In this document: positions 1-46,147 of the stretch, one piece after another
Numbering within the stretch: position 1 is the first letter of the stretch
Layout of the letters: the number at the start of each line of letters is the position of its first letter
Program-made: the position numbers and the translations under genes
The notes under the pieces: model-generated
Databases searched by the model: none
What the model was told of the DNA's origin: nothing
Seen by the model: only the letters and a program-made list of their open reading frames with translations
DNA from: Candidatus Eiseniibacteriota bacterium
GTDB taxonomy: Bacteria > Eisenbacteria > RBG-16-71-46 > CAIMUX01 > VGJL01
Length of the DNA: 64,000 nucleotides
Reading direction: 5' to 3'
Assembly (NCBI GenBank): GCA_034679345.1
Contig: JAXDAY010000010.1
Coordinates: 12,390-76,389, forward strand

Positions 1-1885
1 CCGTCCTGCAGAATTGCCCGGCCTCCGGGCTCGATTCGATCACGCACTGCCCCGAACCGACGAGATGCGGCATGAGATCCTGTCCCTTGACCAGCCGCCT
101 CGCCGCCCCCGCGGGCAGACCGACCGTCCGGGGAACCCATGTGCGCTCGGCCACGGCGAGGTCGGCCGCGTGCAGCGACCGCGGCGCCTGGCCGAACGGG
201 TGCATGTCGAGCTTGGCGGCATCCTCGATGATCGCGGCGAAGACCGGCGCGGCGACGCTTCCGCCCCAGATCGAGCCCTCCGGCTCATCGATCACGACGA
301 GGCAGACCAGGCGCGGATCGTCATAGGGATAGAACCCCGCGAAGGATGCGATGTAGCGCTCCGTGGAGTATTCCATGCGATCGCGCACGAACTTCTGCGC
401 CGTCCCCGTCTTCCCCCCCGGCCGCAGCGACTCGACCTCGGCCGCGGAGCCGGTGCCGTCGGTGACGGCCCGCCGGAGCATCTCGCGCAACAGCCGCGCC
501 GTTTCGGGACTCACGGCCCGCCGGATGATTTCCGGCTCGCGGGTGAGCAGTGTCCGCCCATCCGGGTCGCGGACGGATCGCACGATGCGCGGACGCATGA
601 GAATTCCGTCGTTGGCGATCGCGGCGTAAGCCATCGCCAGCTGCAGCGCCGTGCACGAGATCTCCTGCCCGAAGGCTTGCGTGATCAGCGACCTTCCACT
701 CCAGAGGGAGGGATCGGGGATCCGACCCCTTTCCTCGCCCGGGATTTCCACCCCCGTGGGCACCCCGAAGCCGAGTAGCCGTTCCGTGGCAAAGAATCCC
801 TCCCCCTTCACCCGCTCGGCGATGATGCCGGTGCCGATGTTGCTGCTCTTGGCGAGGACGAGCCATGCCGGCATCACGCCGTAAGGATCATGGTCCTTGA
901 TCGGGGGCCCCCCGGGCGCGGGACGCCGACCGTTCATGCAATCGATCAGATCGTTCTCCCCGATGACGCCCGCCTCGACGCCCGCCGCGAAGGCGACCAG
1001 CTTGTAAGTCGAGCCGGGCTCGTAGTTGACCCCGACGGCCCAGACGCGGAAGGCCAGGGTGTCGGCGCCGAGGACCGCCTCGGGCTCGAAGTCCGGAAAC
1101 GAGGAGAGCGCCAGGATCTCTCCGGTGGACGGATCGATCAGAATCGCGGTCCCACCACGCGCGTTCTGCTCGCGGATGGTCCGGCGCAGGTGGGCGTCGG
1201 CGATCTCCTGCAGTCGGGCATCGATCGTCAGCTCCAGGGTCGCGCCTTCCTGTGGAGGCTCGAGGATCACGCATCCCGGACCCTCGTGCAGATCGGCGCG
1301 AGCCGAGCGGAAGTCGAGGATCCGGCCCTCCGCTCCTCGCAGGAGCGTGTCATAGCTCGCCTCGAGGCCGGTGAGGCCACGCCCTTTCGAGTTCGTCGAG
1401 CCGATCAGCGGAGCGGCGGCGGCGCCGAGCGGGTAGAGCCGCTTCGGCTCAGGAATGCGGATGAGCGGCTGCCCGAGCCGCTTCTCGAGCGAGGTGGCGA
1501 CCGACTCTCGCACGTAGCCCTGATCGATCCAGACGAACCGGCTCGAATCGCGCCGCGCGCGCCGGATCTGCTCGAGAACGCGCGAGGCGGGGGCGATGCC
1601 GTACTCCTCGAGGACCGTGGCGAACTCCTCGGGATCCTCGATGAGGCCCGGATCCATCGCGAGCGAGCTGCCCTCGACCGTGAAGGCGACCGGCGAGCCG
1701 TGCCGGTCGACGATCACCCCTCGAAGGCTCGGGATCGTCCGGATCTCTCTCTGCTGATCGAGCGCCTTGGCGAGCAGCTCCTCGTGACGCACGAGCGTCA
1801 GATGGACAAGCCGCCCCCAGAGCAGCGCGAAGCAGCCGACCAGGACGAAGGCGACGAGGCGGAGCCGGTCAGTCCGCGGAAACAC
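1..1885 (-). CDS. ftsI: Penicillin-binding protein transpeptidase (FtsI/PBP3-like), 5' part; C-terminus lies left of the window
   Basis: My own translation of the minus strand from ~1885 downward gives VFPRTDRLRLVAFVLVGCFALLWGRLVHLTLVRHEELLAKALDQQREIRTIPSLRGVIVDRHGSPVAF...IGSTNSKGRGLTGLEASYD. This is a single N-terminal TM helix followed by a PBP dimerisation-domain-like sequence. The frame is absent from the ORF track, which is consistent with a GTG start (overlapping the ftsL stop) and no in-window stop. Position matches the canonical dcw order. Confidence 0.65.
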   Translation of the reverse strand, partial: MFPRTDRLRLVAFVLVGCFALLWGRLVHLTLVRHEELLAKALDQQREIRTIPSLRGVIVDRHGSPVAFTVEGSSLAMDPGLIEDPEEFATVLEEYGIAPASRVLEQIRRARRDSSRFVWIDQGYVRESVATSLEKRLGQPLIRIPEPKRLYPLGAAAAPLIGSTNSKGRGLTGLEASYDTLLRGAEGRILDFRSARADLHEGPGCVILEPPQEGATLELTIDARLQEIADAHLRRTIREQNARGGTAILIDPSTGEILALSSFPDFEPEAVLGADTLAFRVWAVGVNYEPGSTYKLVAFAAGVEAGVIGENDLIDCMNGRRPAPGGPPIKDHDPYGVMPAWLVLAKSSNIGTGIIAERVKGEGFFATERLLGFGVPTGVEIPGEERGRIPDPSLWSGRSLITQAFGQEISCTALQLAMAYAAIANDGILMRPRIVRSVRDPDGRTLLTREPEIIRRAVSPETARLLREMLRRAVTDGTGSAAEVESLRPGGKTGTAQKFVRDRMEYSTERYIASFAGFYPYDDPRLVCLVVIDEPEGSIWGGSVAAPVFAAIIEDAAKLDMHPFGQAPRSLHAADLAVAERTWVPRTVGLPAGAARRLVKGQDLMPHLVGSGQCVIESSPEAGQFCRT

Positions 1886-2303
1886 GGTCGCGTCTCCAAC
1901 CCGTCGATGCCTTCGCTTCCTTCACTCCATCGGGTAGGTAGCCGCTCACGCGTTTCCATATCCCTGCTTCCTGCGCGTCCGCGACGCTCTCGTCCGCGGT
2001 CGCGAGGGGTAGGACATCGATCCGGACACGCTGATCGAGACTCGCGACGTCCATCTCCCACTCCTGCGAGGCCACGTCCTGGACGATTCCGTAGGTGCAC
2101 GCCCTCTTGATCGAGACGGCCAGGTAGGCCTCGTCGGATCTCCTCTCCTTCAGGGTCCGTTCGAGTCGCTCGATCCGGGTGGTCTGCTCGTTGTACTCGA
2201 CCCGCATGCGGGTCAACGCCAGGAGGTAGACGAATAGACCCAGCAGCAAAACGACCCACCGCAGGTGGAAGCGGCCGAGGTGCCGATGCCTCATGCTTGC
2301 CAT
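1869..2303 (-). CDS. ftsL: FtsL-like cell-division protein (short N-terminal cytoplasmic tail, one TM helix, coiled-coil periplasmic region)
   Basis: 144-aa ORF with TM segment WVVLLLGLFVYLLAL followed by a charged coiled-coil-like stretch (EYNEQTTRIERLERTLKERRSDEAYLAV). It sits between rsmH and ftsI as in dcw clusters. Confidence 0.55.
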   Translation of the reverse strand: MASMRHRHLGRFHLRWVVLLLGLFVYLLALTRMRVEYNEQTTRIERLERTLKERRSDEAYLAVSIKRACTYGIVQDVASQEWEMDVASLDQRVRIDVLPLATADESVADAQEAGIWKRVSGYLPDGVKEAKASTGWRRDRVSAD

Positions 2304-3193
2304 GGTTCCTCAGTCCTCTCGAAGGCCCGGAGCTTCGCCGATCGGGCCCTCGGATTCCGCACGATCTCTTCCCTCTCGGGACGCACCACCCGCCGCGTCA
2401 GGGTTCGCCACAAGGGCTCGCCGTTGACGCCACACATGCGCCCGCATGACTTGGCGATTCGATCCGTGATCGATTCGTAGGTGATCACGACGAGCCTCCC
2501 CATCGGGACGATCCAGCCCGGCGCGCCGGCGAGCAGCCGCTGGAGCTCGCCGAGCTCGTCGTTGACCCGATACCGGAGACTCTGGTAGAGCCTCGAGAGC
2601 TCGGCCGGCCCTCCGCGAAGGGCTCCCCCCTTCCGCAGCGCGCGCACAAGATCGCCCGAGGTGAGGATCGGCTTCGCCTCCCGCTCACGGACGATGGCGC
2701 GGGCCGCCGCGCGCGCGTTGCGCACTCCGCCCAGCTCGCGAAAAGTGGTGGAGATCTCATCCTCGCCCGCGCGGGCGATGAAGTCGGCGGCCGTCATCGG
2801 CCGGCTGCGGTCCATTCGCATGTCGAGGGGCGATTCAGCGTCGCGGTATCGAAAGCCCCGACGTGAATCATCGAGCACGGTCGTGCTCAACCCCAGATCC
2901 ACGATGATCGCGTCGCACAGCACGCCTTCCCTCGCGAGCTCCTCTCCGATCCTGGAGAATGGAGCATGGAAGAGGCGAACCTTCTCCGAGAACTCGGAGA
3001 GGCTTTCGGCCGCGGCGTGAATCATCTCCCCGTCCCAGTCGAAGCCCCAGAGGCGCCCTTGTTCCGTCTGCCTGCTGCAGATCAGACGCGCGAGGGTGCC
3101 GCCGTCGATCGTGCCGTCGCAGACGATCCCGGACGGATTCCAGCCGACGAGATCGGCCGAAACCTCCGCGAGTACGGGAACGTGCTTCGCCAT
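2291..3193 (-). CDS. rsmH: 16S rRNA (cytosine1402-N4)-methyltransferase RsmH/MraW
   Basis: 300 aa. The MAKHVPVL N-terminus and the DGTIDGGTLARLI / GEPLWRTLTRRVVRPEREEIVRNPRARSAKLR regions are typical of RsmH. It is immediately downstream of mraZ. Confidence 0.9.
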   Translation of the reverse strand: MAKHVPVLAEVSADLVGWNPSGIVCDGTIDGGTLARLICSRQTEQGRLWGFDWDGEMIHAAAESLSEFSEKVRLFHAPFSRIGEELAREGVLCDAIIVDLGLSTTVLDDSRRGFRYRDAESPLDMRMDRSRPMTAADFIARAGEDEISTTFRELGGVRNARAAARAIVREREAKPILTSGDLVRALRKGGALRGGPAELSRLYQSLRYRVNDELGELQRLLAGAPGWIVPMGRLVVITYESITDRIAKSCGRMCGVNGEPLWRTLTRRVVRPEREEIVRNPRARSAKLRAFERTEEPWQA

Positions 3194-3333
3194 GGGTCCC
3201 CAGTCTCAGGAGACGGCGGGGTCGCGGTCCGGGGCGGCTGTCCCACGGACGGACCAGGGAGGGAGGACCGAGTGGTTGGGTTTTGCCGGACCCCCCGAAC
3301 CCCGGACCGCGAATGCCGTCTCTGAAGCGCGGG

Positions 3334-3735
3334 CTAGTTCTCCATCACACCCCAGGGAGTCGCCCGCGCGCCGGCCAACACGACCGGTCCGGGCGCTCCC
3401 CGCGCAGAAGAGCGTCCAGTCTCTTCCGCGAAATCCGCGAAGATCTCGGCTTCGTCCGTGGATAGCCCGACAAGCGCGATCGCGAGCAGATAGTCGCTCA
3501 GGCCGAAACCGATCACCGTCACACCGGAATCCCGCAGTCGTACGAGCGCCGCGCCGAGAGCCGGCAGGCCGCGGAAATCGCAGTGCCGCACTCTCGACCA
3601 ATCGATGATGATCCTGCGGGAGAGGGAAACCGGCGCGTGGAGGAGACGATCGGCGATGGCTTCGAGATCCTGCCGCGAGAGCCAGCCTGCCGGCGTTTCG
3701 ATCCACTCGTCGTTCTGAAGTCTCAGTTGCCGCAT
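3334..3735 (-). CDS. STAS-domain protein (anti-sigma-factor-antagonist-like) inserted between mraZ and rsmH
   Basis: 133 aa with protein-like composition. Core RRIIIDWSRVRHCDFRGLPALGAALVRLRDSGVTVIGFGLSDYLLAIALVGL fits the STAS/SpoIIAA pattern (IDLSGV.F.DSSGL...L...G..L.L.GL...V...L). The conserved phosphorylatable Ser position is Phe (CDFRG). Start is 2 nt after the mraZ stop. Confidence 0.5.
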   Translation of the reverse strand: MRQLRLQNDEWIETPAGWLSRQDLEAIADRLLHAPVSLSRRIIIDWSRVRHCDFRGLPALGAALVRLRDSGVTVIGFGLSDYLLAIALVGLSTDEAEIFADFAEETGRSSARGAPGPVVLAGARATPWGVMEN

Positions 3736-3736
3736 C

Positions 3737-4252
3737 TCAGGTCTCGCGCGGATCCGGAGGGTTCACGGACGGGCCGGTGTCGCGCGCGACGCCTTCGCCG
3801 CGATCCCACCGCCTCGCCATCTCCTCGATCGATCCGCCGAACTCCCGGTTGTATTCCCCGTAACGTTCGAGCTTGCCTTCGGGCCACAGCTCGATCCATT
3901 CTCCAAGCCCAAGGAAGACGACCGGCTCTTTCCCGATCTGCGCGTGCTCGCGCAGAGCCGGACTGAGTTGGATTCGACCCTGTGAGTCGGGAGTGACGAT
4001 CTCCATGCCGCGGTAGATCGTCCGCTGGTAGAGGCGGGCTTCACGATCGGCGCGAAAGTCGGCGAGCCGGATCTGAGGCCGGAGCTTCTCCCAAGAGGAG
4101 AGAGGGAAGAGCATGATCGTGCGGTCCAGCCCCTTCATCGCGACCATCGCAGGAGCCTCCTCCTGCTTGATGATCGCGCGAAGAGCAGCCGGGAACGTCA
4201 CGCGCCACTGGCTGTCCGGCTGGCTTTTCCCCTCGCCTACGTACGGCAGCAA
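3737..4252 (-). CDS. mraZ: Division/cell-wall cluster transcriptional regulator MraZ
   Basis: 171 aa. N-terminus MLPYVGEGKSQPDSQWRVTFPAALR, plus a second half containing GRIQLSPALREHAQI. Together these give the duplicated MraZ fold. It is the first gene of the dcw cluster. Confidence 0.85.
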   Translation of the reverse strand: MLPYVGEGKSQPDSQWRVTFPAALRAIIKQEEAPAMVAMKGLDRTIMLFPLSSWEKLRPQIRLADFRADREARLYQRTIYRGMEIVTPDSQGRIQLSPALREHAQIGKEPVVFLGLGEWIELWPEGKLERYGEYNREFGGSIEEMARRWDRGEGVARDTGPSVNPPDPRET

Positions 4253-4329
4253 TCGACCATCCCCCCGACGTGATCGCGATGCCTTCCCCTATCCTTGACT
4301 GACTGACCCATTTTGCGCCTTTTTGCCCC

Positions 4330-4363
4330 TTCTGTCCAGAGAATTCGGCCACTTGGGACAGAA
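4330..4363. promoter_or_regulatory. Perfect 8-bp inverted repeat TTCTGTCC-N18-GGACAGAA (EcoRI site at centre) ~80-110 nt upstream of mraZ
   Basis: Seen directly: ttctgtcc at 4330-4337 and ggacagaa at 4356-4363. It lies in the 200-nt intergenic region between the glycosylation operon end and the mraZ start. There is also a GACT x3 tandem at ~4298-4309. Confidence 0.3.
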
Positions 4364-4452
4364 AACTTAGCCCCGTTTCGCCGGCGTGGACGGCCTGCCG
4401 GCCTCCACTCCAGGAGAATTCCTCCCTCAGATGAGGCGACGGGGGGAGCGGA

Positions 4453-5742
4453 TCAGGAGGTGGAGAGGACCTCGTCGAGCAGCCGGGCGAGGTCGGCGGT
4501 CAGCCGTCGCCTCTCGAAGCGCTCGATCCCCGCGCCCACGGGGCAGACGGGACCGAGCTCGCCGGTCCGATAGAGGTCGTAGAGCCGCGCCAGATGCGCG
4601 GCGGCCGCGTCGGGATCCGTTGGAGGGGCCGCAAGGCCCGCCTGTAGCTCGCCGACGAGATCACGCGCCGCGCCATCCGGCACGAGGGCCAAGACCGGCC
4701 GACCCGCGCGGATCAGCTCGAAGGTCTTCCCCGGGAGAATGAGGCTTCCGCGCTCGCTCTCTTGCTCCAGCAGCAGCAGGACGCGCGCGCGACACAGCTG
4801 GAGGACGGCCTCGCGGTGCGGTATGGGATCGCGGAATCGGATCCGGCGCGCGAAGACCCTCCGCCGCGCGGACTCCTCGTGGGAGTCGTAGCGCGCGCCG
4901 ATGAAGTCGACCCATGTCCGCTGCGCGGCCTCGGGGCGGAGGCGGAAGAAGCGATCGAGAGCGTCGAGGAGCGGCTCGATGCTGCGATCGGGGTTCAGCT
5001 GGCCGGCGTGGAGAATCCGGAACTCCGAGTCGGGCTCGGGCGCCTGCGCGGGAAAGTCCTCCTCGTCATAGCCGTTCGGAATCACGGCGATCCGATCTCG
5101 GTCGAGCTTCGGGTATCTCCGGATGAAGTCGTCCCTCGTCGCCCCCGAGGTCACCACGAGCCGCGATGCGCGATTCACGACTCGTCGCTCCATGGAGCGC
5201 TGGATCGCATCGTGGATCGGAGTCGGGGGAGCGTAGCTCATCCGCCGGACCCAGGGATCCCTGAAGTCGGCGACCCACCCGACTCCGGGGCGGTGGATTC
5301 CCAGTCCGGCCAGATGGGCGCTGTCGGGGGATGAGGTCGTCAGGAGCACTCCGCCCTCGGCCAGGATCCTCCCGGCCACCGCGGAGGCGCGGCGCGCCCA
5401 GGAGGCATAGACGTCGGGCACGAAGAGGAAGCGGGCGACTCCACGCGCCAGGAGGTGACGCCGCTGGCTGCGGCGCGCCGCGCTCGCCCCACTCGCGACG
5501 TCGCGACCGGCGAGCCGGCCGAGAAGAGGCCCCGCGGAGATGCGAGTCACCTGGACCTCGGGGGGGACATCGTCGAGCAGGGAAGGATCGGTCATCCAGT
5601 AAGCCCCCTCGCGGACGGTGATCACATGGGGCGACCATCCGTGGGCAGGGAGGTACCGGGCGAACTTCAGGGAACGCTGGACCCCGGCGCCTCCGAGCGG
5701 GGGAAAGAAGTAGGCGAGGTAGGCGAGCCTTCTGGGTCTCAC
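4453..5742 (-). CDS. Glycosyltransferase family 4 (last gene of the glycosylation operon)
   Basis: ORF-track frame 4453..6213. The N-terminal 157 codons are R/G-rich and overlap the upstream gene. The likely true start is GTG at 5742, forming a GTGA overlap with the upstream stop. Protein begins RPRRLAYLAYFFPPLGGAGVQRSLKFARYLPAHGW and carries a GT4 C-terminal domain (EQESERGSLILPGKTFELIRAGRPVLA). Confidence 0.75.
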   Translation of the reverse strand: MRPRRLAYLAYFFPPLGGAGVQRSLKFARYLPAHGWSPHVITVREGAYWMTDPSLLDDVPPEVQVTRISAGPLLGRLAGRDVASGASAARRSQRRHLLARGVARFLFVPDVYASWARRASAVAGRILAEGGVLLTTSSPDSAHLAGLGIHRPGVGWVADFRDPWVRRMSYAPPTPIHDAIQRSMERRVVNRASRLVVTSGATRDDFIRRYPKLDRDRIAVIPNGYDEEDFPAQAPEPDSEFRILHAGQLNPDRSIEPLLDALDRFFRLRPEAAQRTWVDFIGARYDSHEESARRRVFARRIRFRDPIPHREAVLQLCRARVLLLLEQESERGSLILPGKTFELIRAGRPVLALVPDGAARDLVGELQAGLAAPPTDPDAAAAHLARLYDLYRTGELGPVCPVGAGIERFERRRLTADLARLLDEVLSTS

Positions 5743-24418: not shown

Positions 24419-27400
24419 CTACTCCCTCCAGAGGACCACCTTCAGGTTCGCTTCCTCCGTCCGGGCGCCGTCGGAGGCGGTGACACGGACGATGTAGGCG
24501 CCGTTCGCGAGCTTCGTGCCGTCGCTGGCCGTGCCGCCCCAGTAGATCCCGCCCAACTTCGACGGAGTCATCTGTTCGTGGCTGGCGAGAGTCGTCACGT
24601 AGTTACCCGCGAAGTCGTAGACCTTGATGGTCACATCGCTCGTCTTGCTCAGGGCGAAGTGGATGAGAGCATCGCCGTCGGCAGGATCGAACGGGTTCGG
24701 GTAGGTGTAGACGTCGGTCAGGGTCAACATGGTCGCCTCGACCCGGACCGTCTTCGTCGAACTGCAGGTGTGGCCAAGGCGATCCCTGGCAGTCACAGTG
24801 ATCGTGTAATCGCCGACTGCAAGCGGAGCCGGGATCGTGGCGGTGTAGTGGCCGTTGTTCCACTCCTCGTTCTCCGGAACGATCTCCTCGCCGTCCGGCC
24901 CGCGGATGATGACCACGAGGTCCTCAGCCGACGAACCGACGCCCACGCCCGTGTCCGCCGCGGTGACTTCGATCACCATCGGGGTATTCGGATCATGGAC
25001 GGAGGCCGGGAGAATGATCGCGCACTCCGGAGCGAGCGCATCCACGATGAACCTCTGCTCAACGTACTTGCTGCCGCTGTTGCGCACCTGGTCGAGGACG
25101 CCCTGCTGGTAGATGATCCGCTGCTGGCTCAGGAAGTCGAACCAGCAACCGTCGAGCACGTACAGCGTCTCCCCGCCAACGACGAGGGTGTCGACCACGT
25201 CGCACTGGAGGGCCGGGCCCTCACCCAGGAGGGTGCGGGTCTTCTGGCTGTAAAGCGTGACCTCGAGGATGTCGCCATCCTGGATCCGTCCGCCGCCCAC
25301 GATGGGCAGCTTCACGAGCAGTTCCTCGCTCGGGTCGTAGATGTTCTCAGCGCCGTAGAGAGGCGGCTCGAGGTAGGGCAGCAGCTCATCCGCCGTGCCC
25401 TCGTGCAGCAACTCGCGCTCCTCGAACTCGTCGATGTCGAGTTGCTCGTCCTCTCCGTCGACGCGCCACAGGTCGTAATGGATACCCCAGTCGATCGGGT
25501 TGAAGCATTCGAACCCGCCGACCGGATCCGTGAAGGGCTCGAGGAAGAGCTCGACGTCGTCGATGATCTCGTCGCAGTCGGGATCCTGGATGAACTCCTG
25601 CCGCTCCGGCCTCACGAAGATACCGGAGAGCGGATCGTACATCCGGACCGTCAGCATGGCGTCGTCACCGGCGATGTAACCGTGGACGTTCCGGAGCAGC
25701 GGATTCGAGACCCAGCCACCATGGAACTCCACGATCGGGGCGGTCAGGTCGACCGTGAACGGCATTGTCACCGAAGTCAGATCGTCCGTCCCGTGCGTCC
25801 TGTATTCCACTGTGATCGTGTGATCGCCCTCAGCCAGCCAGTCGCGCTGGATGGGAGAGTGGAAGTAGTCGAGCTCGTAGATGGTCGAGTGGCCATCGTT
25901 GCCGTCGTCGTTCGCGCTCATGAGGTGCGCGCCGCCAGCGCCCCAGACCCAGGTCGCGATGACGTCCTCGGCGAAGTCGCTCACGTCGTAGAACGTGGCG
26001 ACGTCGCGGTCGTCCACCTTGACCTTGACTGTGCTGGCCTCGATGCCCTGTCCGCCGATGTCGTGCAGATAGAAGCTGAAGATCGGATCGGCATCCGTCA
26101 CCCAGTTGCTCAGGTAAGCGGAGTGCGGCGTCACGTTGGCGAGGAACACCGGCGCGCCGCTCTTCGGAGCGAAGACCTCGAAGACCGTACCGTCGCTGTT
26201 GATCGACGAGAGATTGTCCACATTGAAGGAGATCTCGTTCGCCTCGGTGTTGACCCGGATGTTCATGATGCCCTCGGCATCCGAGTAGTCGTAGTCCCAA
26301 CGCCGAACCGTCAGCATCTCCTCCGTGACGCCCTCGTTTTCAGCCAAGGCGGCATTCAGAGCTTCGTCGCTGTACTTGATCACGATCGTCGGAAGGTATC
26401 CTTCCCGGAAGTCGTCATAGTACTCGCTTTGGCTCTTCGTAACCTCGATGTGCCACGCAGTGTCCTTCAGAGGAGTCAGATAGACCCTCTCCTCGGGACT
26501 CAGCTGCGGCGCGATGGTCTCGCTGACGAGCAGGCAGGCGTCGTCCTCCATCCAGGCGCCGCTGACCACGGTCACCTGGCTATAGAGGTCTCCGTAGCCC
26601 TGCGTCACCACCGTGCCATTCGTGCCGAGTTCCGTCGTGACGGGGAACTCGTGAATCGCGGTGGTCACCTCATCGATGAACCACTCGGGATTCTGCATGC
26701 CGGTCACGAAGACCTTGAAGTGCAAGCATTCGTCGATTGGGTACTCATCGTCATAGGTTTCCGTGAGACTGATCCGTCCGCGCCAAACCGTCGGATCATC
26801 GAGGGAGCGGACCAGACCGAACTGGCCGTTCTCGGGATCGGACGGAACTCCGGCGGAGTAGATCCACCAGTAGTCGTTCGGCGCGACGACGTTGTCGCTC
26901 TCTCCGAGGACTACGACACGAGGCCGATCAGTCGAGTTCGGCATGTCGACGGTCAGGATCGCCTGCGGTTCGCTGTTTTCGTCCGCGCTTTCGATCTGAA
27001 CCGACACGTCCTCGACGATCGGCGGCGCCGTGCGAAGGGCCCGGAAGGTCCAGGCGCCGTCATAGGGCCACTCGGTCGGATCGTTGACATCGTCGAGACG
27101 GATGAGCTCCGCCCGCATCATCGGCACCACGTCCGCCGGGTCATCGCCGTAGCGGTTGCCGTCGGAATCCTTCGCGAGAGCGCGCAACCAGAAGAGGGCG
27201 CCTTCCTGGAAGTTGAAGGCCGTCGTCTCGATACGCGTCCGCCACAGGACTTCAGTGGTGTAGTCGTGCTGGCCGGTCACCTGCTCGCCGAATCCGATGT
27301 TCACCCACTCATGATCGAGATCGTTCTCGCCCTCGATCGTGTCGTACTGGAACAGAACATCCTCGATGCTCGGGTCGCTCTCGGCGAGCGCGTAAATGTA

Positions 27401-30400
27401 GAGGTAAGTCAACGGATTCTCGCCGTGCGGATCCTGATCGGGGTCGAACGCCACGACCCGAGCCGTCGGCGGGATGTTGTCGCGAATGATGACATTGACG
27501 TTTCCGCTGGTCGCCGCGTTGCCGCACTCGTCGATCGCGGTGACCCGCAGCAGGTACTCGCCGTCCACCACCAGGCCGGTCGTGTTCCAGAGAACCGAAC
27601 CGGTCACGGCGGAAGGATCATCGAGATCCGCCGGGTCGAAGACGATCGTCCCAAGGTCGCGCCAGATATCGCCATCCGGCTCATCGTCCTTGTTCAGATC
27701 CTCGGCGACCTGGAACTGCATCTGCGTGACGAACGTCTCGTGGCCGAGCGGAGCGTTCGGGATGTTGGCCTCGTCGTCCGAAGCCGTCGCCCAGATCTCC
27801 ACCTCGAGGCCGCGCGTGACTTCCGTCACCTGCCCGAAGTCGATCGGATCCTGAGTCGGATCGTCGACCGCGAGCTTGATGTTGGTGATGTTCACCGGAT
27901 CCGGAGCCGTCGTATCGAGCGTGTTCTTCCAGGAGTAGATCACGTTCGCGTTGCCGGCGACGTCCATGACCCTGACGCGCAGGTCGATCAGCTCGCCCAG
28001 CGCATCGAAGTCGGGATTCGGCTTGCAGCCATCCTCGTCGAACTCCATCGCGTCGAAGTCCATGGTCTTCGACAGGGTGTTCAGAGCGTCGTCGTAGAGG
28101 TAATCCTCCGAGACGCCGCAGGGACGCCACAGAGTCGAATCCTCGTACGACCACTTCCACTCGAACACTGCGTCGAACACGTCGTCGTGCTGGACATCGC
28201 CGTTCTCGTAGGTCTGGCCACGATCGGTGATCTGAGCGATCAGATCGAAGATCCGGTGGCCGTTGCGCTCGTCGATCTCCGCATCGCACCACTTCGAAGT
28301 CGCCTCCGTCGGGTGGAGCAGAGCAAACGGCGGGGCGGTCCAGTCGACGAAGACCAGGATCTTCGCCGCCGCATCGAACGGTTCGGTGTTGCCCGCGTCG
28401 TCGGCGCCGAGAGCCGCGACCTCGTACCAGGTCTGGTCATCGAGGGTCGTCAGATCCCACGGACCGGTGAGCCGCCAGGTGAACCGATCCACCTGCTCGG
28501 TGACCGCATCGATGAGGGTCGGCGTGTCCGCCGTCCCCAGCTTGCGGTAGACGAAGTTCACGTAGCTGAGATCGAGGTGACCCGTCAGCAGCTTCGCGTT
28601 GATGTGTTCGATCGACGAGGCGTGAAGCGCCGTCGGGTTCATGATCTGTTCGGTATCGCCGAAGGTGCGCTGCACCTCGGTGATCGTCATGTGAGGCGGG
28701 ATCGTGTCGATGATCTCGAAGGTGAGGCCGCGGCCTTCGGTCAGGTTCGTCACCTGATCGGTCGCGTTGCCGACCTCGTCCTCGACGAGCGTCGAGAAGT
28801 CGTACTGCTCACCGACCTGAAGCGGGAGCGGCCAATCGACGTCATCGGGGTTCTCGAGACCCACCGAACCAAGATCCAGGTTGAAGCTGTAAGGACGAGT
28901 GTGGTCCGGGTTGATGTCGCCGTCCGTGGCGCTCCAGTCCTCGTCGAACGAGTGGTAGGAGCCCGGGAAGTTGACATCACGCGTCCTCTTGAAGAAGAAC
29001 TCGACCGTGTCGTCCTCGTTCGCAGGATCCGTGGAGGCCAGGAACGTGACCACCTCGTTGCGCTGGATCCGATCGGCATCGGGATCCGCGGTCAACGTGG
29101 CGGTCGGAGCATCCATGTCGACCTTGATGATCGCCGTGGTCGTCTGCCCGACCTCTTCCACGTTACCGGCCTCGTCGGTCGCCTTTGCGGAGAGCTTGTA
29201 CCAGCCGCTCCACTTGAGGCTGCCATCGAGGTTCGTCTCCGTGAGATCCCAGTACAGGTGCCACAGGTAGTAGTAGTTCCCGCCGTTCGGGTACTCGTCC
29301 TTGCCGATGGTCACCGGATCGCCGATCGCCTGGCCCTGCTCGTCCACCGGGGTGGCGAAGAACTCGACGAACTCGATTCCGTCGTCACCGTCCGGTAGCG
29401 GCGGGCCTGGGATCTCCTGATCCCCGCCGTTGAAGTCGTCGCCGAAGCGCGTCCTGGCAACGATCGTGACCAACCGGGCGACCTTCATCTTGTTCATGAG
29501 GTCGTTGTTCCCGAGGAAGCCCTCGTTGACATCGCGCGGCCAGGTGTTCTTCCACATACCGATGACCTCGTCGGACTCGGTCTCGTCGGGGATGTTCGCC
29601 CCGCCGGCCGTGCTCAGGACGAAGTCGGAGTAGTAGTCGTAGTCATCCTCGGTGTCCGAGGGATCGCTGCCATCGCGGTCGACCCAGACGTAGGTGTTCG
29701 CATCCTCGCTGGCATCCTCGGTGTCGAAGGCGAAGACCTTCGCCTCGACGTCGATGATCTTGGTAGCGACCGGCGGGTTCTCGTCGCGCACGACGTAGTC
29801 CGCGGCCTTCCAGTCGAGAGCGTTGCCGGCCGGATCGATGGCCATCACCCACACCTCGATCGGTGTGTCGTGGAAGACCTCGGTCGGCCAGACCCACGAA
29901 GCGTCGAACAGCCACTGGCAGTTCGGCGTGTCCAGGGTGCCCTCGACCGTGTCGTCCGGTCCGAGGCCGCCCTCAGGCGTCGAGGCGATGACGTACTTCG
30001 TCTCGTCGCCGGCCAGCTTGAAGTAGAGCTGAACGTGCCGCACGTCGGTGATGGCGTCCTGGAGAACGACGTGGAAGTCGACGTTCTCACCCGGCGCGAT
30101 CTCCCCGTATGGCTGGTTGTCGCTGAAGTCCCACAGCGTCGGATCGCTGAAATCGACCGCGGCGGTGACGTAGGCCGGATCGGCCTGGTTCGCGTTCGTG
30201 TTACACGCCGCGTCGGTGGCGAGAACGCGCCACTCCAGCACCCCCTCCGGGATGCCCAAGCCGGCCGCGTTGTCGGCGAAGTCCTCGATGTGCGCGATCC
30301 ACTGCTTGTGTCCGGCGACCTCGGGCGGCCCCGGCGCGTAGTGGAACTCGATCGCGACGTCGTTCCAGTCCAGGGTCCCCGGGAGGCGCCACTGGAGCGT

Positions 30401-33400
30401 GAGGACGTCGATCATGTCATCCGCCGGCGTGTAGACGTAGAACTCGACATCGCCCGTATACGGATCCGGAGCGATGACCGGGGACTCGTGGTCCACGACG
30501 CCGTCGTTGAAGTACATCGCGAGATTCACGAACGGACGACCGCCCTCCGGACCGTAGACGACGGCCGGGGCTTCGCGATCGACCTGGATGTTGGAATGGA
30601 CCGAGGTCGTCCGGTTCCCGTCCGCATCCAGCGCCTCAGCCCACAGCTGGTAGAGGCCGTCCTGGTAGCGACCGTCGGGACCGTTGTCGGTGTCCCACTC
30701 CAAGACGAAGAACGCGGTGTTCGCGCCAGGCGTGTAGTCCCCGCGGCAATCCAGCGGGATGTCGCCGAAAGCGATGTCATCGGCGCGACCGAGGATGACC
30801 GCCTCGCCGCCGTCCGGCTGGAGCATGATGTCGACGCCCACCAGGTCCTCGAGCTCGAGGGCGCTGCCGGCCGTGACCATGCCGTAGAGGGTGACCACGC
30901 GGTTCGCGTAGCCCGTCTCGTCGGTCAGACGGTCGCAACCGCAGAGCTCGGTGTTCATCCACATCAGGAATGCGCCGGGCGCCGTCTGATCGTCGACGAT
31001 CACCACCACCTCATCGGCGTGCAGATCGTCCTCGATCGTCGTGTTGCCCGCGACATCCGTGGCAAGCATCCGGAAGCGGAGGTAGGTGTCCTCGCGCGTC
31101 CCGAGCCAGTTCGTGTCGAAGTCGACGTTGAAGGTGACTTGCCCCTCCTCGGTCGGCTCGATCCGGTTCAGGTCCGTGTTGTCGTTCGGAGTCGGATCGA
31201 TCTCGATCCAGTCCGCGTCTTCGAAGCGGTACTCGAAGACGACGTAGTCGATGGCGCTGGCCGGCGACTCAGGCGTCGCATGGTCGTCCGCCGTGCCGGT
31301 GACCTGGATCACATCTCCGAAGAGGAACGTGTCGCCGTCGTGCGGGTTGTTGATCATCGTCGTCGGCGCGTAGCCGTCGTAGATCAACGCCGGCTCGAGC
31401 ATCGCGTAGACCGGGTTACCGGAACCCGGGAAGAGGTCGTCCGTCGGATCGCCGCCGTAGCCGGCGTCGTCGAAGACGACCGCGCGGACGGGCAGGACCG
31501 AGACGATCTCGTCCGGGTCGGCCGGAAGATCGACCTCGCCGTCGCCGTCGTTGTCGTATCCGTCGCTCTCGGGCGGATCGAATCCAGCGCCGCCGAAGTG
31601 AAGAACGCCGGACCAGCCGTCCGCGGGGTCACGATCGATGGCGAAGGTGAGCCACTCGTCCGGGGTGCCGTCGTCGTTCTTGTTCGGGCTGTACTGGAAG
31701 ACCACCGTCCGGGTCGTGATGACGTTGATGTCGGGACCGTCCGTCGATTCGAGGTGGACGGTGATCTCCGACTCGGCGCCGGGCATGACGCCGCCATTGT
31801 CTGCCCAGAAGTTGGAGACGATGGGGGCATCCTTGTCATACATGAACATGATCGGTCCCTGCGGAGCATCGCTGCCATCCGACAGGTTCGTTCCGACCAT
31901 GCCCTTGTTGTCGGTGACCGTCACGAGGACCCGATAGGCGTCGGACTCGAGGACGGAGGTGTCGAACATGTAGTAGTAGAACTCGTCGGGCAGCGCGATC
32001 AGCGATGTCGTTCCCTGACCGCCGCTGCTGTTCCGCCGGTCCGCGTAGTTCCCGTCGTCGTCACCGATCTTGTCGATGAAGAACCGGTACTCGTAGACCG
32101 TTCCCGGCATGAATCCGTCGTAGATCACCTGGTAGTAGTCCGGGTGCCCGACATTGCTCATCGGCAACGACGTGTAGTCGACGGCGCCTTCCTCACGGAT
32201 CCAGAGGGCGACGTTCTCGATCTCGTCGCTCCGGACCTCGTAGTAGTCGGCGACGTACATCGTCAGAGCCATCGAGAGAGCCTTGTCGCCGGAGTAGAAG
32301 TCATTGACGACATCCAGCAGGACCGTCGAGAACGGATCGCTCTCGAAGGCCTGGTAGAAGTCGAGCTTGACCTCGGTGATCTCGGCCGTGGCGTCGGTCG
32401 TCGAGGCGGTCACGAAGACGTCGTTCTCGACGCCGCTTCCCTTGTGCTCGGGCGTGCCGGCGGGAGCGAGACCGAACGGGTTGCCCGGCCAACCGAGCTC
32501 CGGCGCTGCCGGAGGCTCCTGCTGCGGGTAACCCCACTCGTCGCCCTGCTCGTAATCGAGACCGTAGAGATGAACGATCGGGCGGGCGACCTCGCGAAGG
32601 ATCACATGATTCCCCTCGCTGATGATCGGCTCCACGAGATCGCACACGCTCGTATCCTCGTACCAGCCCGAGCCGTCGAGGTCCATCAGACCGACGGCGA
32701 CCAGGTCATAGGCGTTCGCGCCGCTCCAATCGAGCGTTCCCATGTCTCCGTCCGGGTTTTCCGGATCGGGGACGCCGCCCTCGGGACCTTCCGCCCACTC
32801 GACCGTGAAGGGCTCGACGTCATCGCCGGCCGCGATCAGCAACCAGCCGTCGCTGTAGGCGCCGGGGTACTGAATCGCGTCCGGAGGAACGCCGGTGCCC
32901 ATGAAGTTGTAGCTGACCGTGATTTCCGCATCCGCATCCGGGGCGACCGCGAAGGTGATGAACGTGTCGCCCGCCGAGGCGGTGTAGTCGACTCCGCTGA
33001 CGAGCTCCACGCCGCCGATGCAGACCACGACGCCCGCTCCCCTCTGATCGAGGATCGGCTTCTCGAGGGCCAGCATCAGGTTCGCGTCCACATCCGAGCC
33101 CGCGTAAGAGGTGTTCTGGATGCGCGGCGCGAAGTAGAACCGCACCTGAGCGACATTGTCGAAGTCGGGATCAACCTCGCCCACGATCGTCCTGCCGTCG
33201 CCGATGTTCAGGACCGTCTCGCTCGGCAGACAGAGGTCGTCGGGCTTCACGGGATCGATCACGTAGGCGAGATCCTCGCCCGCCCACTGGTTGAAACCGA
33301 ACCCGTACGGGTAGACGGGGATCCAGGAGTAGTTGCCGATGCCGTCGATCGCCTCGGCGAAGAACTGGTAGTTCCCGTCTGTGAGATCCAACCCCTGCTC

Positions 33401-36400
33401 GTGGACCGTCCACCGGAAGTTGTACGGGTAGTCCCGATCCGGATAGGAGTCCCAAGGGGTGTCGTCCGGGAAGGTGTCCATCTGAGCCGCGGAGAGCAGC
33501 TTCCAGCCCGGCCGATCCGTCGTGCAGGCGGGATTCGGGCGGTACCACAGCCGCACCCACTCGATCTCATCGGAGTCTTCCGCCGTCACGTGGACGAGGA
33601 AGGTGCGCGAGGTGGCCGGATTCTCATCGGGTCCGAGGACCTGATAAGGATCGCCGTCGGAGACGGGGTGGAACACGTCCACAACCTCGTCGTCCTCGGT
33701 CTCGACGCGCACCGGGCCCGTCATGATCGGCGGGGTCCAGTCGCGGAAGAGGATCGACTCGAAGTCGGTGCCGGTCAGATCCGACTCGGGGCACTCGCGC
33801 GAACTCTCGACCGTCGCTGTGAGATCGCAGAGCTGGCTGCCCGCGACCGCGTAACCGGCGAGGTCGTAGTACGCGAAGTACGGCTCGACGGAGTCTGCCT
33901 GGTTGACCGAGTCCTGGTCGTCGACCGTCTGGCCGTCGTTGTCCCAGTCGCCGACGACCCAGTCGATGCCGTCCCAGTAGACGTCCTCGCGAACGAGTGG
34001 AACGAGGAGCTGCCCTTCCGGAGTGTCGACGAACGGCGCGTTGCGCCCGGCGTCCAGCACCTCGTCGATGCCCGGATCGTAGAGCCAGTTCTCGTTGACG
34101 TCGCGGATCCGCTCGTCATCGAGATACGGCGCGTAGCTCCTCTGATTGAGGAACTCGCTGCGCGTATCGCGGACGGGGTCGTCCCGATACTGGAAGCCGG
34201 GCAGACCGTTCAGATCGGCGTAGGAGTCGCCGTCCGGGTTCGGCCCGATGACCTCATTGGGCTCGCCCGTGAACGTGGCCGTGAAGACGATGTTCTCGAT
34301 CTCTTCGCCCGCCGGGACGGCCCGCACGCGGAAGAACCGCGCGTTCTTCGGCATCTCATCGATATCCGGCGGCGTGGTGTCCAGGTCGAGCGTGACGATG
34401 TCGTAGCTCCAAGTGTCGTTGGAGGGATCGCCGTCGCCCTGGTCGTCATAGAGCGGCACGAAGGCCTCGACGACCGTCAGGTCGACATCGACCTCGGAGC
34501 AGTTGACGGTGACGATCTGAAGCTCGAGCGGGTTCCAGTTGTCCGGGTCGTACTGATGCTCCTGGATCTGGTCTTCCTCGCCGGAGCGGGTGATGGCGAT
34601 CGTGCGGACGATGTAGTCGCCATCGCTCTGCGTCTCGTCGCCGCACGGATCCCAGTCGATCTTCCACAGATTCAGCCCGATGAGGGCCGGATCGAGGTCG
34701 TCGCCGTAATCCGTGTAGTTCTCGCGGTTCTCGCGGAAGATATAGTCGGACGGGTCAAGATTCTCCCAGTCGTTGGGAGTCCCGTCGCAATCGTCCGCCT
34801 GCTCGGCCCAGTAGTAGGCCGGGTTGGCGTTCGAATCGTCGTCGTAGGTCGTGAACCGGGTGAGCGGAACGCCGTCGGGGATGTTCTCGCTGTAGGTGTC
34901 CGACCCGATGACGACGATGTCGATTCCCTCGTCATAGACGTCGTTCTCGTTCACGTCCTCGATGACCGCGTCCCTCGAGGAGTAGACCGGGAAGCCGACG
35001 ATGTAGTCGTTGTCGGCGTTGTAGTAGGAGTACCAGCGGTCGTCCGGCCCATACGAGAAGAACCGGCTGGCGCCGCCATAGGCCGCCTCGAGGAAAGCGA
35101 GGTCGTCGCGGCAGCCGTTGTCGGAGTTGAACCGGTAGATGAGCTGGTCGCCGCGCTCGCCGATCGCGTCAGGATCGGATCCGCCGACGGTGCCGATCGT
35201 CTCCCAGACCTCTCCGGCATCGAGATCGTTGCCGTTGACGACGATCTCCTTCAACCGCTCGAACCGGACCCGGTCCGGGTCGAGGCCGTTGCAGCCATGG
35301 ATGTAGTGGAGGCCGTAGAGCTTCAGCTGCCCCTCGAGAGCGGGAGGAGAGGAGCAGTAGACCGGCTCGATATAGACGCGGCAGGGGAAGAAGTCCTGTC
35401 CGGGGTAGAGCCACTCCCACGCGGTCTCCTCCGGGTTGATCGTCTCGATGCGGCCGACGTTCCCTTGCCAGTCCGCGGCCGCCAGCAGGAACGCCAGCTC
35501 GCTCGGCGAGGTGATCTCGTCACCTTCCACCGTCTGCCAGATCGTCCCGTTGGGCGGGGGCGGAACATTCCCGTACGGGGGAAGCCCGTCTCCCACATAG
35601 ATGCTCAGCCCGATCCGATGCGGAGAGTTCACTCCGTCGATCTGACGGGGCCTCATGTTCCCGAGCGCGATGGCCCTGTCCAGATAGGTGGCCATCTTCG
35701 TCTTGTCCCAGCTACCCTCGTTTCCGCGAAGCACGGGGTAGAGGAAGTACTGGTCGCCGTCGTCGATCCCCGACTCGTAGAACCGGAGATAGGCGGTGTA
35801 GGTCTGGTTGGGCTCATCGAAGGTCCAACCATCCTCGCCGGAGACCCAGTCGTTGGTCAGCGTGACCAGGCGAGGGCGGCTCTCCTCCATCACCGGGGTC
35901 CAGAATAGGTTGGCGTCATAGTAGGAGTTGCCGTCGACGTCCTGCAGGTCCGTGCCCCCCTCCACCGGCTCGGCGAACCGGATCCGGCAGCCCTGCTCGT
36001 ACGGATCGGCGCTCTCGCTGAAGTCCCGGATGATGATGACCGGGAAGTTGTCGCCGTCCGGCGGCTGATAGTCCACCACCTCGTTACCGCCGAAGGCGAA
36101 TCCCTGGAGATCGAAGTTCTGGGTGATGTCCAGGGTCCCGTCGTCGATCTGGGCCGCCTGAGCGGGAAGGATCGGCAGCGACAGGTAGATGTAGAGCGCA
36201 TCGTTGGAGAGATCATCGTTGTCGGGGTCGCTGGGATCCTTGTTCTCGTCGTACGAGGACCGCACGATGCCGCCGCCGACATGGATGCTGATCGTATCGT
36301 CGGGGACCGCCAGTTGACCTTGGTAATCCTCGAAGAACTGCGCGGATCCTGGAATCGTCACCCCGACGTCGTCGATGTTGACGTCGTTGATGCTGAAGTT

Positions 36401-37468: not shown

Positions 37469-38040
37469 CACCCTCTTCCTCCTTTGGTTGACCATGCCGC
37501 CCTGGAACCGATGCTGGGCGGACTTGTCCCTGTTCCCTCTGCGTGGCGCAACCCCCAAATGGCACAACGGGAGCTCGCGCTTCCCTTCGTTTGTGACTCC
37601 CCCATTTCGGGGCTGCCCATGAAGCGTCCTGCACACGTGATGCACGCGTCCTCGCATCTTCTCTAAAGCACCAAAGAGGGGCGATGGACATAGCGTCCCC
37701 GCTCCGCCTTGCCTACGGATGAGTCGACTTCGTTTCTTCAGCAAACTCCCCCATGATCATCCATCCCTTGCCGGACGTCGACGGACGTCATGCGCCATTG
37801 CGTATGGCGACCAACCCCCTGCAAGAGTGGACCTTACAGTGTCGCGCACAGAACCGGCTGGCAGACTGTCACAGCAGTCAAGCGGTGTCAACACGAAATT
37901 CTAGAACCCCCGAGCATCATTTGAGGAAGATCCCCCTGGGGGTTATCGGCCGTCGAGGAGCGATCCATCAGCGCGATTCCCGGACCCGTCGGAGTCACAT
38001 TATTCAAGTGAACCGACGCAAATACAGACCACAGGGCTGG

Positions 38041-40983: not shown

Positions 40984-41317
40984 TAGACTACCCTCCCTAG
41001 GATCCGCAGAGGTCGCACGCTGTCTCTCGCCAGCCGGACTCGTTCCTGTCTTGATCAGCCTCAGAGTTCGGGATCGATCGGATCGAGGCAGCCGAGGACT
41101 CATTGAGATGGAGACTCGACGCGAGAGCCATGCACGACGGCTTCCATGACCTGGTGCCCCCGGGATACGGGCAACCCGCTGGTGCCCGCTCTCGGGTACC
41201 ATTGAGCCGCCCGCGCGGTCTCGACGGGCACGCACCCCGGGGAGTGTCGCGCGCCTGGATTGGATGCGTCAACCCGAATCCAATCTGCGCTGAGGCTCTG
41301 AGGCTTGTGCGAAGAGC

Positions 41318-41390
41318 TTGAGCCGCCCGGGACTCGAACCCGGCACGTCCTGCTTAAAAGGCAGGTGCTCTACCGGCTGAGCTAGCGGCT
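41318..41390 (-). tRNA. tRNA-Lys (anticodon UUU)
   Basis: Minus-strand sequence GAGCCGCTAGCTCAGCCGGTAGAGCACCTGCCTTTTAAGCAGGACGTGCCGGGTTCGAGTCCCGGGCGGCTCA folds as a cloverleaf. Acceptor GAGCCGC/GCGGCTC, anticodon loop CTTTTAA. CCA is not encoded. Confidence 0.85.
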
Positions 41391-41443
41391 CTCGGCGAGC
41401 CTAACCTGCCGCGGCGCTTCGCGCAACGCCCGAGACCCGCGCA

Positions 41444-44772: not shown

Positions 44773-46077
44773 CTATCTCGGGGTCCCGGCCTCGACCGAT
44801 CCCGCGGCCCGCGTCCGAGGCTTCTTCACGCGATTGACCTGCGCGTTCGCGACGAGGAAATCCAGGACCTTGCGCTCCTGCATCGTGTCCCGGAGCCGGT
44901 CCAGATCTCCCTCCCCTTCCACCTTCCGCTTGAGGACGGCCGTTTCGACGCCGGCCTCCTCGGCCATCTTGTCGAGCTCCGCCTCGACCTCGGACTCGGC
45001 AAGCTGCAGCGACTCCTTGCGGATGATCGCCTCCATGAGGATGTCCCGGCGGCAGATCCGCTCCACGACGCCGCGGTACCGCTCCCGGAAGGCCTCCTCG
45101 TCCAGGTCCTCCGTCTCCTCCCGGGCGCGCTCGATCGCCCGCTCGAGGCGATAGGAAACCATCCGCTCGGGAACCTGGAACGGGTGCCCTTCCATGAGCC
45201 GCTCGACCAGTCGATCCTCCAGTCGCTGCTTGCTCCGGAGCAGCTCCTCCGACTCCAGCCGGAGGCGCAGCTTCGCCCGGAGCCCCTCCAGATCCAACCC
45301 GGAGTCGATGCTCCTGGCAAAATTGTCGTCCAGCTCAGGAAGAATCTTCTCATCGATTTCCTTCGCCGTCAGTCGGAAGCGGCGCGTCTTGCCCGCCAGC
45401 TCGGCATCCCCGAACTCCTGCGGGTACTCGACCGTCACGACCCGCGTCTCGCCCGCCGAGATCCCCATCGTGGCCTCTCGGAACTCCGGCAGCAGAGTCG
45501 GCGAGCCGACCTCGATGCGCACCTCCTCCTTCTTGCCCGAAGGCAACTTCTTGCCGTGCACGTCGACCGGCTCGAGGATCGCCTGCACGACGTCTCCGGC
45601 TTCGGAGGCGCGCTCCACCTTGCTGAGCGCGGCCCGGTTGCGGCGCATCATCTGGATCGCCTCGTCCAGCATCGTCTCGTCGACCTCGAGGATCTCCTGA
45701 TCGACGACGAGCCCGCGGTAGCCGCCCACCTCGATGTCGGGATGGATCTCGATATCCGCGAGGAAGACGAGAGGCTCGCCCGGCTGGAATCGGATGCCGT
45801 GGATCCGCGGCGGCGCGACAGGGGAGAGCCCGAGATCCCGGATCGCCTCGTCATAGGCCTCGGGGATCAGATCGTTCAAGAGATCCGACTCGATGCTTCC
45901 CTGGAACTGGACACGCACCAGGTCCGTGGGGGCCTTCCCTTGCCGGAAGCCCGGGAGCGCCGCGCGCCGCCGGTAGTGCTCCACGAGGGACTCCATCCGC
46001 CTCTCCACCGACTCCGCGGGAACGACCACGCGGATCTCTCGACCCCACTCTCCACGCTCTGTGACCTGGAATTCCAA
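44773..46077 (-). CDS. tig: Trigger factor
   Basis: ORF-track frame 44773..46224. The ATG at 46224 would overlap tRNA-Leu. The likely real start is TTG at 46077 after GAGGAGG, giving [50 protein letters not shown]. Confidence 0.85.
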
Positions 46078-46147
46078 CACGATCCTCCTCTCGCGCCACC
46101 TTCGAGTCCTGCCGATGCGCCGAGCACGCGGCGATTCACATCGCGCC

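Follow-up and report, generated by a model that had tools for sequence, protein, structure and literature searches.

A predicted STAS-fold protein conserved between mraZ and rsmH in the dcw cluster of a Candidatus Eiseniibacteriota bacterium and its relatives

Here we report the analysis of a gene for a small STAS-domain protein that lies between mraZ and rsmH in the cluster of genes for division and the cell wall (dcw) of a Candidatus Eiseniibacteriota bacterium, as found in a 64,000-nucleotide stretch of contig JAXDAY010000010.1 (positions 12,390 to 76,389; hereafter the window, to which all coordinates refer unless another locus is named). The dcw cluster is among the most conserved gene arrangements in bacteria, and MraZ, the product of its first gene, is almost universal and responds to control signals that are poorly understood. 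The gene described here (3334-3735, on the minus strand, which a first-pass annotation of the window had not stated) is present as that annotation had described it, a 133-amino-acid (aa) open reading frame (ORF) between mraZ and rsmH that includes the peptide IIIDWSRVRHCDFRGLPALGAALVRLRDSGVTVIGFGLSDYLL. It is a real gene under purifying selection, its product is predicted from structure models to adopt a SpoIIAA/RsbV-like STAS fold, and its place in the cluster is conserved among relatives. The explanation that best accounts for the whole of the evidence, and that we hold to be somewhat probable, is that the protein is a dcw-embedded single-domain binding module, most likely a regulator that would act by binding MraZ or RsmH.

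The window DNA has a GC content of 66.6%, and its list of ORFs contains dozens of overlapping chance ORFs. Since chance ORFs as long as the STAS ORF are abundant in such DNA, length alone is not evidence for a gene, and this abundance, together with a single-sequence Pfam match below threshold, is what favors the view that the ORF is a chance frame or a decaying remnant in the mraZ-rsmH spacer. The GC contents at its three codon positions (0.69, 0.51, and 0.75) are like those of the neighboring genes. A word-indexed search of 5.8 billion proteins returned an identical protein and orthologues at 69% and 62% identity, both of the latter encoded between mraZ and rsmH in other metagenomes. Comparison of three close lineages by the Nei-Gojobori method, which measures selection within the lineage of the window, gave proportions of non-synonymous differences (pN) of 0.06-0.08 against proportions of synonymous differences (pS) of 0.43-0.49 over residues 41-112, with a dN/dS ratio of about 0.1 in the STAS core; residues 82-109 showed no non-synonymous and 7-13 synonymous differences. 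Because pN is far below pS across the three lineages, it is the protein that is conserved. This selection, the orthologues that occupy the same slot in several lineages at identities down to about 30%, and the confident STAS-fold model described below refute the chance-ORF explanation, to which we give virtually no credence.

The first-pass annotation had claimed a clear STAS core, with a phenylalanine at the canonical phospho-serine position, and had named the Pfam models PF01740 and PF13466 as the check. Taken singly, the window protein matches STAS_2 with 22.4 bits (E = 1.4e-4; gathering score 29.2) and STAS with 16.7 bits (gathering score 22.6), and so is significant by E-value and falls below the gathering score by which Pfam membership is assigned. 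The Pfam check stood by E-value and across the subfamily, 18 of 20 members of which match STAS_2 at E <= 0.01 (best 9.2e-7), and failed at the gathering score of the window protein itself. A profile search of the sequences in PDB retrieved the anti-sigma antagonist TM1442 (E = 0.012) and also a Rhodobacter antagonist. Residues D53-F54-R55-G56 were aligned on D-S-A-G of TM1442, which places Phe54 on the phospho-serine of that protein and bears out the claimed substitution.

The structure models point the same way. AlphaFold2 run with a 3-sequence alignment gave a mediocre mean predicted local distance difference test score (pLDDT) of 65.7, and with a family alignment of 56 sequences it gave 80.3 overall and about 95 for residues 10-110. 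The order of elements in the model, strand-strand-helix-strand-strand-helix-strand-helix-helix, is that of STAS domains. Foldseek comparison with PDB placed SpoIIAA first (1thn_B, E = 5.6e-5), followed by 1h4z (SpoIIAA) and 4hyl (a Haliangium antagonist), with further matches to 6m36 (RsbV), 6jhk (RsbS), and the STAS domains of SLC26 or SulP proteins; the top 30 or so PDB matches were all STAS domains, with target TM-scores of 0.60-0.74 for single-domain antagonists. Profile methods likewise detected homology to proteins with recorded PF01740 and PF13466 matches. The STAS core claimed in the first pass is thus supported by the STAS_2 matches of the subfamily, by its hhalign match to a sister subfamily with recorded STAS domains (see below), and by the structure-model matches, and the gene product is modeled as a single-domain protein with a SpoIIAA/RsbV-like STAS fold.

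The family to which this protein belongs is small. An exhaustive profile search of 1.84 billion representative sequences recovered just 39 proteins at E <= 1e-3, nearly all of them 91-155 aa long. Those nearest the window protein make up a window-type subfamily (alignment A2, 20 sequences, about 30-40% identity) and the more distant ones a sister subfamily (A5, 13 sequences); a third alignment, A6, has 56 sequences. A2 and A5 matched each other by hhalign with a probability of 99.7% (E = 2.9e-25), and sister-subfamily members carry PF01740 and PF13466 matches on record. Common to both subfamilies is a signature composed of V-x-H-x-D-[YF]-R-G and S-x-Y-[LV], which the window protein shows as V49-R-H-C-D-F-R-G56 (codons 49-56; 3568-3591, minus strand) and S80-D-Y-L83. 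In the model, supported by the alignments and by the comparison with TM1442, the first motif forms a loop where strand 4 meets helix 2, which is the place that the D-S-S-G phosphorylation loop takes in SpoIIAA and RsbV, and the second lies at the start of helix 3. The fixed columns of both motifs, H51, D53, and R55 among them, show no variation or are conserved to at least 90% in A2, A5, and A6, and all displayed sequences of A2 and A5 have Phe or Tyr at the phospho-serine position.

In the databases, the family has been passed over. The myxobacterial 90%-identity clusters, which also hold proteins from Cystobacter, Melittangium, Archangium minus, and Vitiosangium, are named merely 'STAS domain-containing protein' or 'anti-sigma factor antagonist', and the cluster of the window protein itself has no accession or name. 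The window subfamily has no NCBIfam match and the family no dedicated NCBIfam model; sister proteins match TIGR00377 at E of about 2e-9, with 37 bits against a cutoff of 53.45. Literature searches returned no paper that ties a STAS protein or gene to mraZ or to the dcw cluster, the apparent matches being author names (Mrazek, Stasiak), and no study of the Archangiaceae family members was found. The dcw-embedded STAS family is therefore a conserved, uncharacterized variant without a paper or a curated family model, and automatically assigned labels like 'anti-sigma factor antagonist' probably give a wrong idea of it.

The genomic position of the gene is conserved too. Nothing normally separates mraZ from rsmH, according to the first-pass annotation, which treated the gene as an insert and proposed to look for it in related clusters; we found it there, on the same strand as mraZ and rsmH, in all 14 distinct relatives with readable neighbors, either between the two genes or, at contig ends (three relatives, which show one side only), beside whichever neighbor the contig keeps. 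Among window-type loci, both neighbors are seen in L005, L010, L013, and L017; L016 has the C-terminus of mraZ and the N-terminus of rsmH, recognized by eye; the contig encoding P0018 has mraZ upstream and a cut downstream gene without identification; L012 shows only mraZ, L011 only rsmH, and P0028 reads through into rsmH. The sister-type loci are the complete genome of Archangium violaceum (L021, CP069338.1), a metagenome-assembled genome (MAG) labelled Candidatus Eisenbacteria (L022), Latescibacteria DG_63 (L023), the 49-kb metagenome contig encoding P0046, and L025; both neighbors are seen in all five. The gene is accordingly no oddity of this one genome, recurring as it does in several bacterial phyla, with carriers such as cultured A. 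violaceum and Eisenbacteria- and Latescibacteria-labelled MAGs. In every locus with a readable downstream side rsmH follows directly, at a gap of 4-19 nucleotides (nt) in the sister subfamily, and on the mraZ side a single base separates the genes in the window and in L022, the two overlap in L023 and L025, and elsewhere the distance is at most 66 nt.

Scanning the species-representative genomes with the three close orthologues gave no match, and the 20-sequence alignment was too divergent to yield a search pattern. An RsmH scan of the same genomes returned only one Patescibacteria and one alphaproteobacterial locus, which were taken as controls; in both, mraZ is followed by rsmH, and the gap of about 100-160 nt leaves no space for a gene. 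Compared with the Eisenbacteria and Latescibacteria copies, the window protein has an identity of 40-42% in its STAS core, and RsmH one of 35-39%. These similar values fit long co-inheritance with the cluster better than a recent insertion, and in place of 'inserted' the gene is better called an old dcw-cluster member restricted to certain lineages. The RsmH identities and a glycosyltransferase gene shared upstream of mraZ place the window lineage closer to Eisenbacteria and Latescibacteria than to Myxococcota. Three candidates were set aside in these searches: P0028 as a STAS-RsmH fusion, since its spacer is translated out of frame, which marks a frameshift read-through; P0083, which looks like a read-through of the same kind; and L019, from the DNA-pattern scan, a chance match inside a dxs-like gene of a genome with 74% GC.

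The first-pass annotation had further suggested that the gene is a partner-switching component, and the protein could accordingly be a classical anti-sigma-factor antagonist that binds an RsbW/SpoIIAB-type kinase encoded elsewhere and frees a sigma factor feeding into division. The nearest solved structures (SpoIIAA, RsbV, and RsbS) favor this view, as do the E-value of about 2e-9 to TIGR00377 in the sister subfamily and the names of some database records. The protein also shares with SpoIIAA and RsbV (PF01740, PF13466; TIGR00377) its size, a strand-helix core ending in helix 4, a conserved surface on the loop preceding helix 2 and on the beginning of helix 3, and an operon in common with its presumed partner, and these proteins are its best structural matches. 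However, where they have a phosphorylatable serine in D-S-S-G, at the N-terminus of helix 2, the family has Phe or Tyr in H-x-D-[YF]-R-G throughout; the TIGR00377 scores stay under the cutoff; and the gene is embedded in the dcw cluster, strictly linked to mraZ and rsmH, its only invariant partners in cis, and not to sigma-factor genes. Neither the gene tables for the 14 related loci nor the Pfam scan of 37 window genes showed a HATPase_c_2 kinase or a PP2C/SpoIIE phosphatase. Given the Phe/Tyr at the phospho-site and the lack of a kinase or phosphatase nearby, the protein is not a classical anti-anti-sigma factor; the partner-switching proposal was thus not borne out, and we rate a classical antagonist as improbable.

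Other known STAS systems fit in part. MlaB, of the MlaFEDB lipid transporter, is likewise a small single-domain STAS protein that binds stably to a product of its own operon and takes part in no kinase-phosphatase cycle, and weak similarity of the family to it was seen with the MlaB model NF033618 (E as low as 2.5e-6) and, by Foldseek, with MlaB chains. The NF033618 scores of sister proteins, however, are 20-28 bits against a cutoff of 90, the sequence signature is another one, and the neighbors are a DNA-binding regulator and an rRNA methyltransferase; no mlaFED or ABC transporter genes occur in any locus table. A SulP/SLC26 fusion does not apply to a stand-alone 133-aa protein with the mraZ stop one base upstream of its start. 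Counterparts in cultured Archangiaceae include WP_203402560.1 of A. violaceum and S9PKL5 of Cystobacter fuscus, which share the family, the signature motifs, and the mraZ-rsmH slot. They differ from the window protein in being only about 31% identical to it, in lacking the disordered tail described next, and in the distance to rsmH, which is about 12 nt, in contrast to a structured spacer of 140 nt in the window.

The window subfamily, and not its sister, carries a variable linker and a conserved C-terminal peptide (codons 112-133; 3337-3402, minus strand). Residues 112-133 have pLDDT values below 50 and are predicted to be disordered. The window protein ends in PWGVMEN, and most subfamily members in [S/T]P[L/W]x-hydrophobic-S-x-N-COOH, a pattern that rests on amino-acid conservation across members that are 30-40% identical; among the three close lineages residues 113-131 vary and give no evidence of purifying selection. 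The tail is carried by P0004-P0007, P0011, P0012, P0014-P0020, P0024, P0030, P0033, P0036, P0042, P0043, and the L017 protein. P0013 and P0008 lack the hydrophobic-S-x-N end solely because the frame changes a little ahead of the stop; when shifted, they still read ..ISKN* and ..LISKHR*, and L011 contains N bases, which makes these exceptions probable assembly indels. The conserved tail looks like a docking peptide, and linker and tail are likely a second docking element.

The terminal Asn codon, with the TAG stop after it, leads directly into a conserved RNA block, AACUAGCCCGC, so that constraints on protein and RNA overlap here. The spacer between the STAS gene and rsmH (3194-3333, minus strand; 140 nt) is 140-175 nt long in the window subfamily and more conserved than the coding sequence, and pairing, covariation, and folding energy point to a conserved RNA-like structure at 3198-3333 (minus strand). 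Copies lie at 6224-6361 in L005, 809-947 in L010, 457-632 in L011, 645-818 in L013, about 616-763 in L016, and about 1230-1373 (minus strand) in L017. A long closing stem, GAGACGGC..CGCGGUCCGGGG paired with CCCCGGACCGCG..GCCGUCUC, surrounds two hairpins and a CCUCC-rich stretch; the spacer contains an invariant 9-bp inverted repeat, CGCGGUCCG and CGGACCGCG, the outer stem covaries, and at the stem base the GGG in the ribosome-binding site of rsmH is paired with CCC just past the stop codon of the STAS gene. Across 7 distinct spacer sequences, 88% of the alignment cells are paired, and compensatory changes occur at 9 pairs, compared with 3.0 +/- 1.4 in shuffled alignments (a value reached in 0 of 500) and 1-4 in slid controls. 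The minimum free energy of the window spacer is -78.8 kcal/mol (z = -3.19).

This spacer element is absent from the sister-subfamily loci. An Rfam cmscan of positions 3100-4500 at E <= 10 gave only two weak matches to Streptomyces small RNAs and no family for the spacer, and a scan of the whole window at the gathering threshold gave two tRNAs only. A dispersed repeat was rejected, as the 9-mer arms are no commoner in the window than chance predicts. The mraW RNA motif (RF01746) is a structured element upstream of mraW/rsmH in Actinomycetota, and the window element shares its place directly upstream of rsmH within the dcw operon; lineage and architecture differ, however, and the window spacer has no RF01746 match at E <= 10. 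We speculate that the structure might act as a translation-controlling leader, for instance by coupling translation of rsmH to termination on the STAS gene, or serve as a processing stem for RNase III. In its own right, the element is a candidate new cis-regulatory RNA of the dcw operon.

STAS proteins and their direct partners are usually encoded by adjacent genes, as in spoIIAA-spoIIAB, rsbV-rsbW, and mlaB beside mlaFED, and the partners touch the loop preceding helix 2 and the beginnings of helices 2 and 3, the face used by SpoIIAA and RsbV. In the model, the residues that are invariant in the dcw-embedded family map to that loop and to the beginning of helix 3. We propose that the STAS gene would be co-transcribed with mraZ from the mraZ promoter, in the window probably with translational coupling to mraZ, and that the protein would work as a binding module without phosphorylation, using the face that grips partners in classical STAS proteins to bind a product of its own operon. 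The preferred partner would be MraZ, a transcriptional regulator of the dcw operon (PMC12957436), whose repression at the dcw promoter could be modulated in an anti-repressor- or co-repressor-like manner. We name MraZ tentatively, as a possible partner and not yet a likely one, and RsmH, our second choice, with greater reserve.

Several points weigh against this proposal. Conservation of position points equally to MraZ, to RsmH, or to a downstream divisome protein; the MraZ proteins of the carrier loci look canonical, with no obvious co-varying feature (those of the window subfamily are about 20 residues longer at the C-terminus, from which we draw nothing); and a distant kinase or another partner elsewhere in the genome is possible. 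Some STAS domains, moreover, bind nucleotides or lipids and not proteins.

Two other explanations were weighed. The STAS protein might be an accessory subunit of RsmH that, by binding the methyltransferase or the 30S subunit, adjusts methylation of 16S rRNA C1402 and not transcription, an explanation favored by the presence of rsmH as the next gene in every readable locus, by the gap of only a few nucleotides in the sister subfamily, and, in the window subfamily, by the structured RNA that sets the STAS stop codon beside the rsmH ribosome-binding site. The spacing to mraZ is comparably tight, however, and we know of no STAS-methyltransferase pair, which makes this role doubtful in our view. 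Less probable again is a sensor of small molecules or nucleotides, in which the loop of His, Asp, aromatic residue, and Arg would bind a nucleotide or an anion and any protein partner would be secondary. H51, D53, and R55 are charged or polar, cluster on one loop, and would suit a phosphate or anion site, and ligand binding is reported for some other STAS domains; against this, no P-loop or other nucleotide-binding motif is visible, and in solved complexes this loop is where proteins make contact. Returning to the binding module, its most specific form would make the protein a third, hitherto unrecognized component of an MraZ-RsmH regulatory module, a kinase-free, partner-switch-like factor that acts on MraZ through the H-x-D-[YF]-R face and sets the repression of the operon, to which the window lineage would have added the docking peptide and the structured RNA; in so much detail, we consider the scheme rather unlikely to hold.

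The remaining genes of the window cluster, all on the minus strand, follow the usual order. The 171-aa mraZ gene (3737-4252, TTG start) was recognized by its two Pfam MraZ repeats (E = 6.9e-18) and TIGR00242 (E = 2e-16); gene calls on identical contigs use a shorter start (136 aa), and the N-terminal DSQWR and the second DSQGR motif are both visible with the long start only. Its TGA stop (3737-3739) and the ATG of the STAS gene (3733-3735) are separated by the single base 3736. The rsmH (mraW) gene for the 16S rRNA m4C1402 methyltransferase (2291-3193) matches Methyltransf_5 (E = 1.5e-64) and TIGR00006 (184.7 bits, cutoff 154.3). The 144-aa gene that overlaps its end (1869-2303) is assigned to the ftsL position by location; it had no family match in Pfam and NCBIfam scans, and its equivalent in the Archangium locus matches DivIC and FtsL. 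The ftsI gene for a class B penicillin-binding protein (2-1921), truncated at the window edge, has PBP_dimer, Transpeptidase, and PASTA matches, read from the gene on contigs with the identical STAS protein, and the window FtsI is 78% identical to the L005 copy. A C-terminal PASTA domain is present in FtsI of all STAS-bearing dcw clusters that have the complete gene (L021 7719-9722, L022 7829-9928, L023 7929-10043, and L025 6688-8712, listed together with the window gene), the matches in L022 and L025 being weak.

Upstream of mraZ, a consensus scan found one promoter-like site, TGGACA-17-CAAAAT (4310-4338, minus strand), where 0.1 was expected. A perfect 8-bp inverted repeat on the minus strand, TTCTGTCC (4356-4363) -N18- GGACAGAA (4330-4337), overlaps with one arm the first hexamer of this sole site and could serve as an operator; by eye, no clear series of GTG(G/T) MraZ boxes was seen there. 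In the stretch from the STAS gene to rsmH the scan detected neither promoter-like nor terminator-like sites, which is consistent with a single transcript for these two genes and mraZ, and the one terminator-like match lies inside the mraZ coding region. Beyond mraZ, the loci of myxobacterial type have a divergent PilZ-domain gene (3758-4480 of L021 and 3621-4319 of L025, both minus strand, and the JGI contig with P0046), and those of window, Eisenbacteria, and Latescibacteria type have a family-4 glycosyltransferase gene there instead, with a Reg_prop-repeat protein encoded further upstream.

Elsewhere, the window contains a 4441-aa ORF (24419-37744, minus strand) with a strong coding signal (GC3 0.87), whose only Pfam matches are Big_13 and FlgD_ig at the extreme C-terminus, the other 4,200 or so residues having none. 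The next gene (38107-41235) encodes CARDB domains and the same C-terminal FlgD_ig domain, which by its looks is a tag for secretion or sorting common to the two proteins. The window further encodes outer-membrane proteins of the OmpA family and of Omp85-like type. The two tRNA genes lie at 46148-46230 and 41319-41391 (both minus strand); the former shares bases with the 5' end of the longest ORF for trigger factor (44773-46224), and the true start of that gene is therefore further downstream.

With its fixed place between mraZ and rsmH in several lineages and an invariant binding loop of its own, the STAS protein is a strong candidate for a regulatory partner still missing from the control of the dcw cluster. 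If the proposal holds, MraZ would have a signal input in some Myxococcota and in Eisenbacteria/Latescibacteria-like lineages that is absent from model organisms, and in the window lineage the structured RNA would tie translation of rsmH to ribosomes finishing the STAS gene or to cutting of the stem by RNase III. As the family occurs in culturable Archangiaceae (Archangium, Cystobacter, and Melittangium), its role can be tested by genetics and biochemistry. The dcw-embedded family would also add to the kinds of STAS domain that function independently of phosphorylation.

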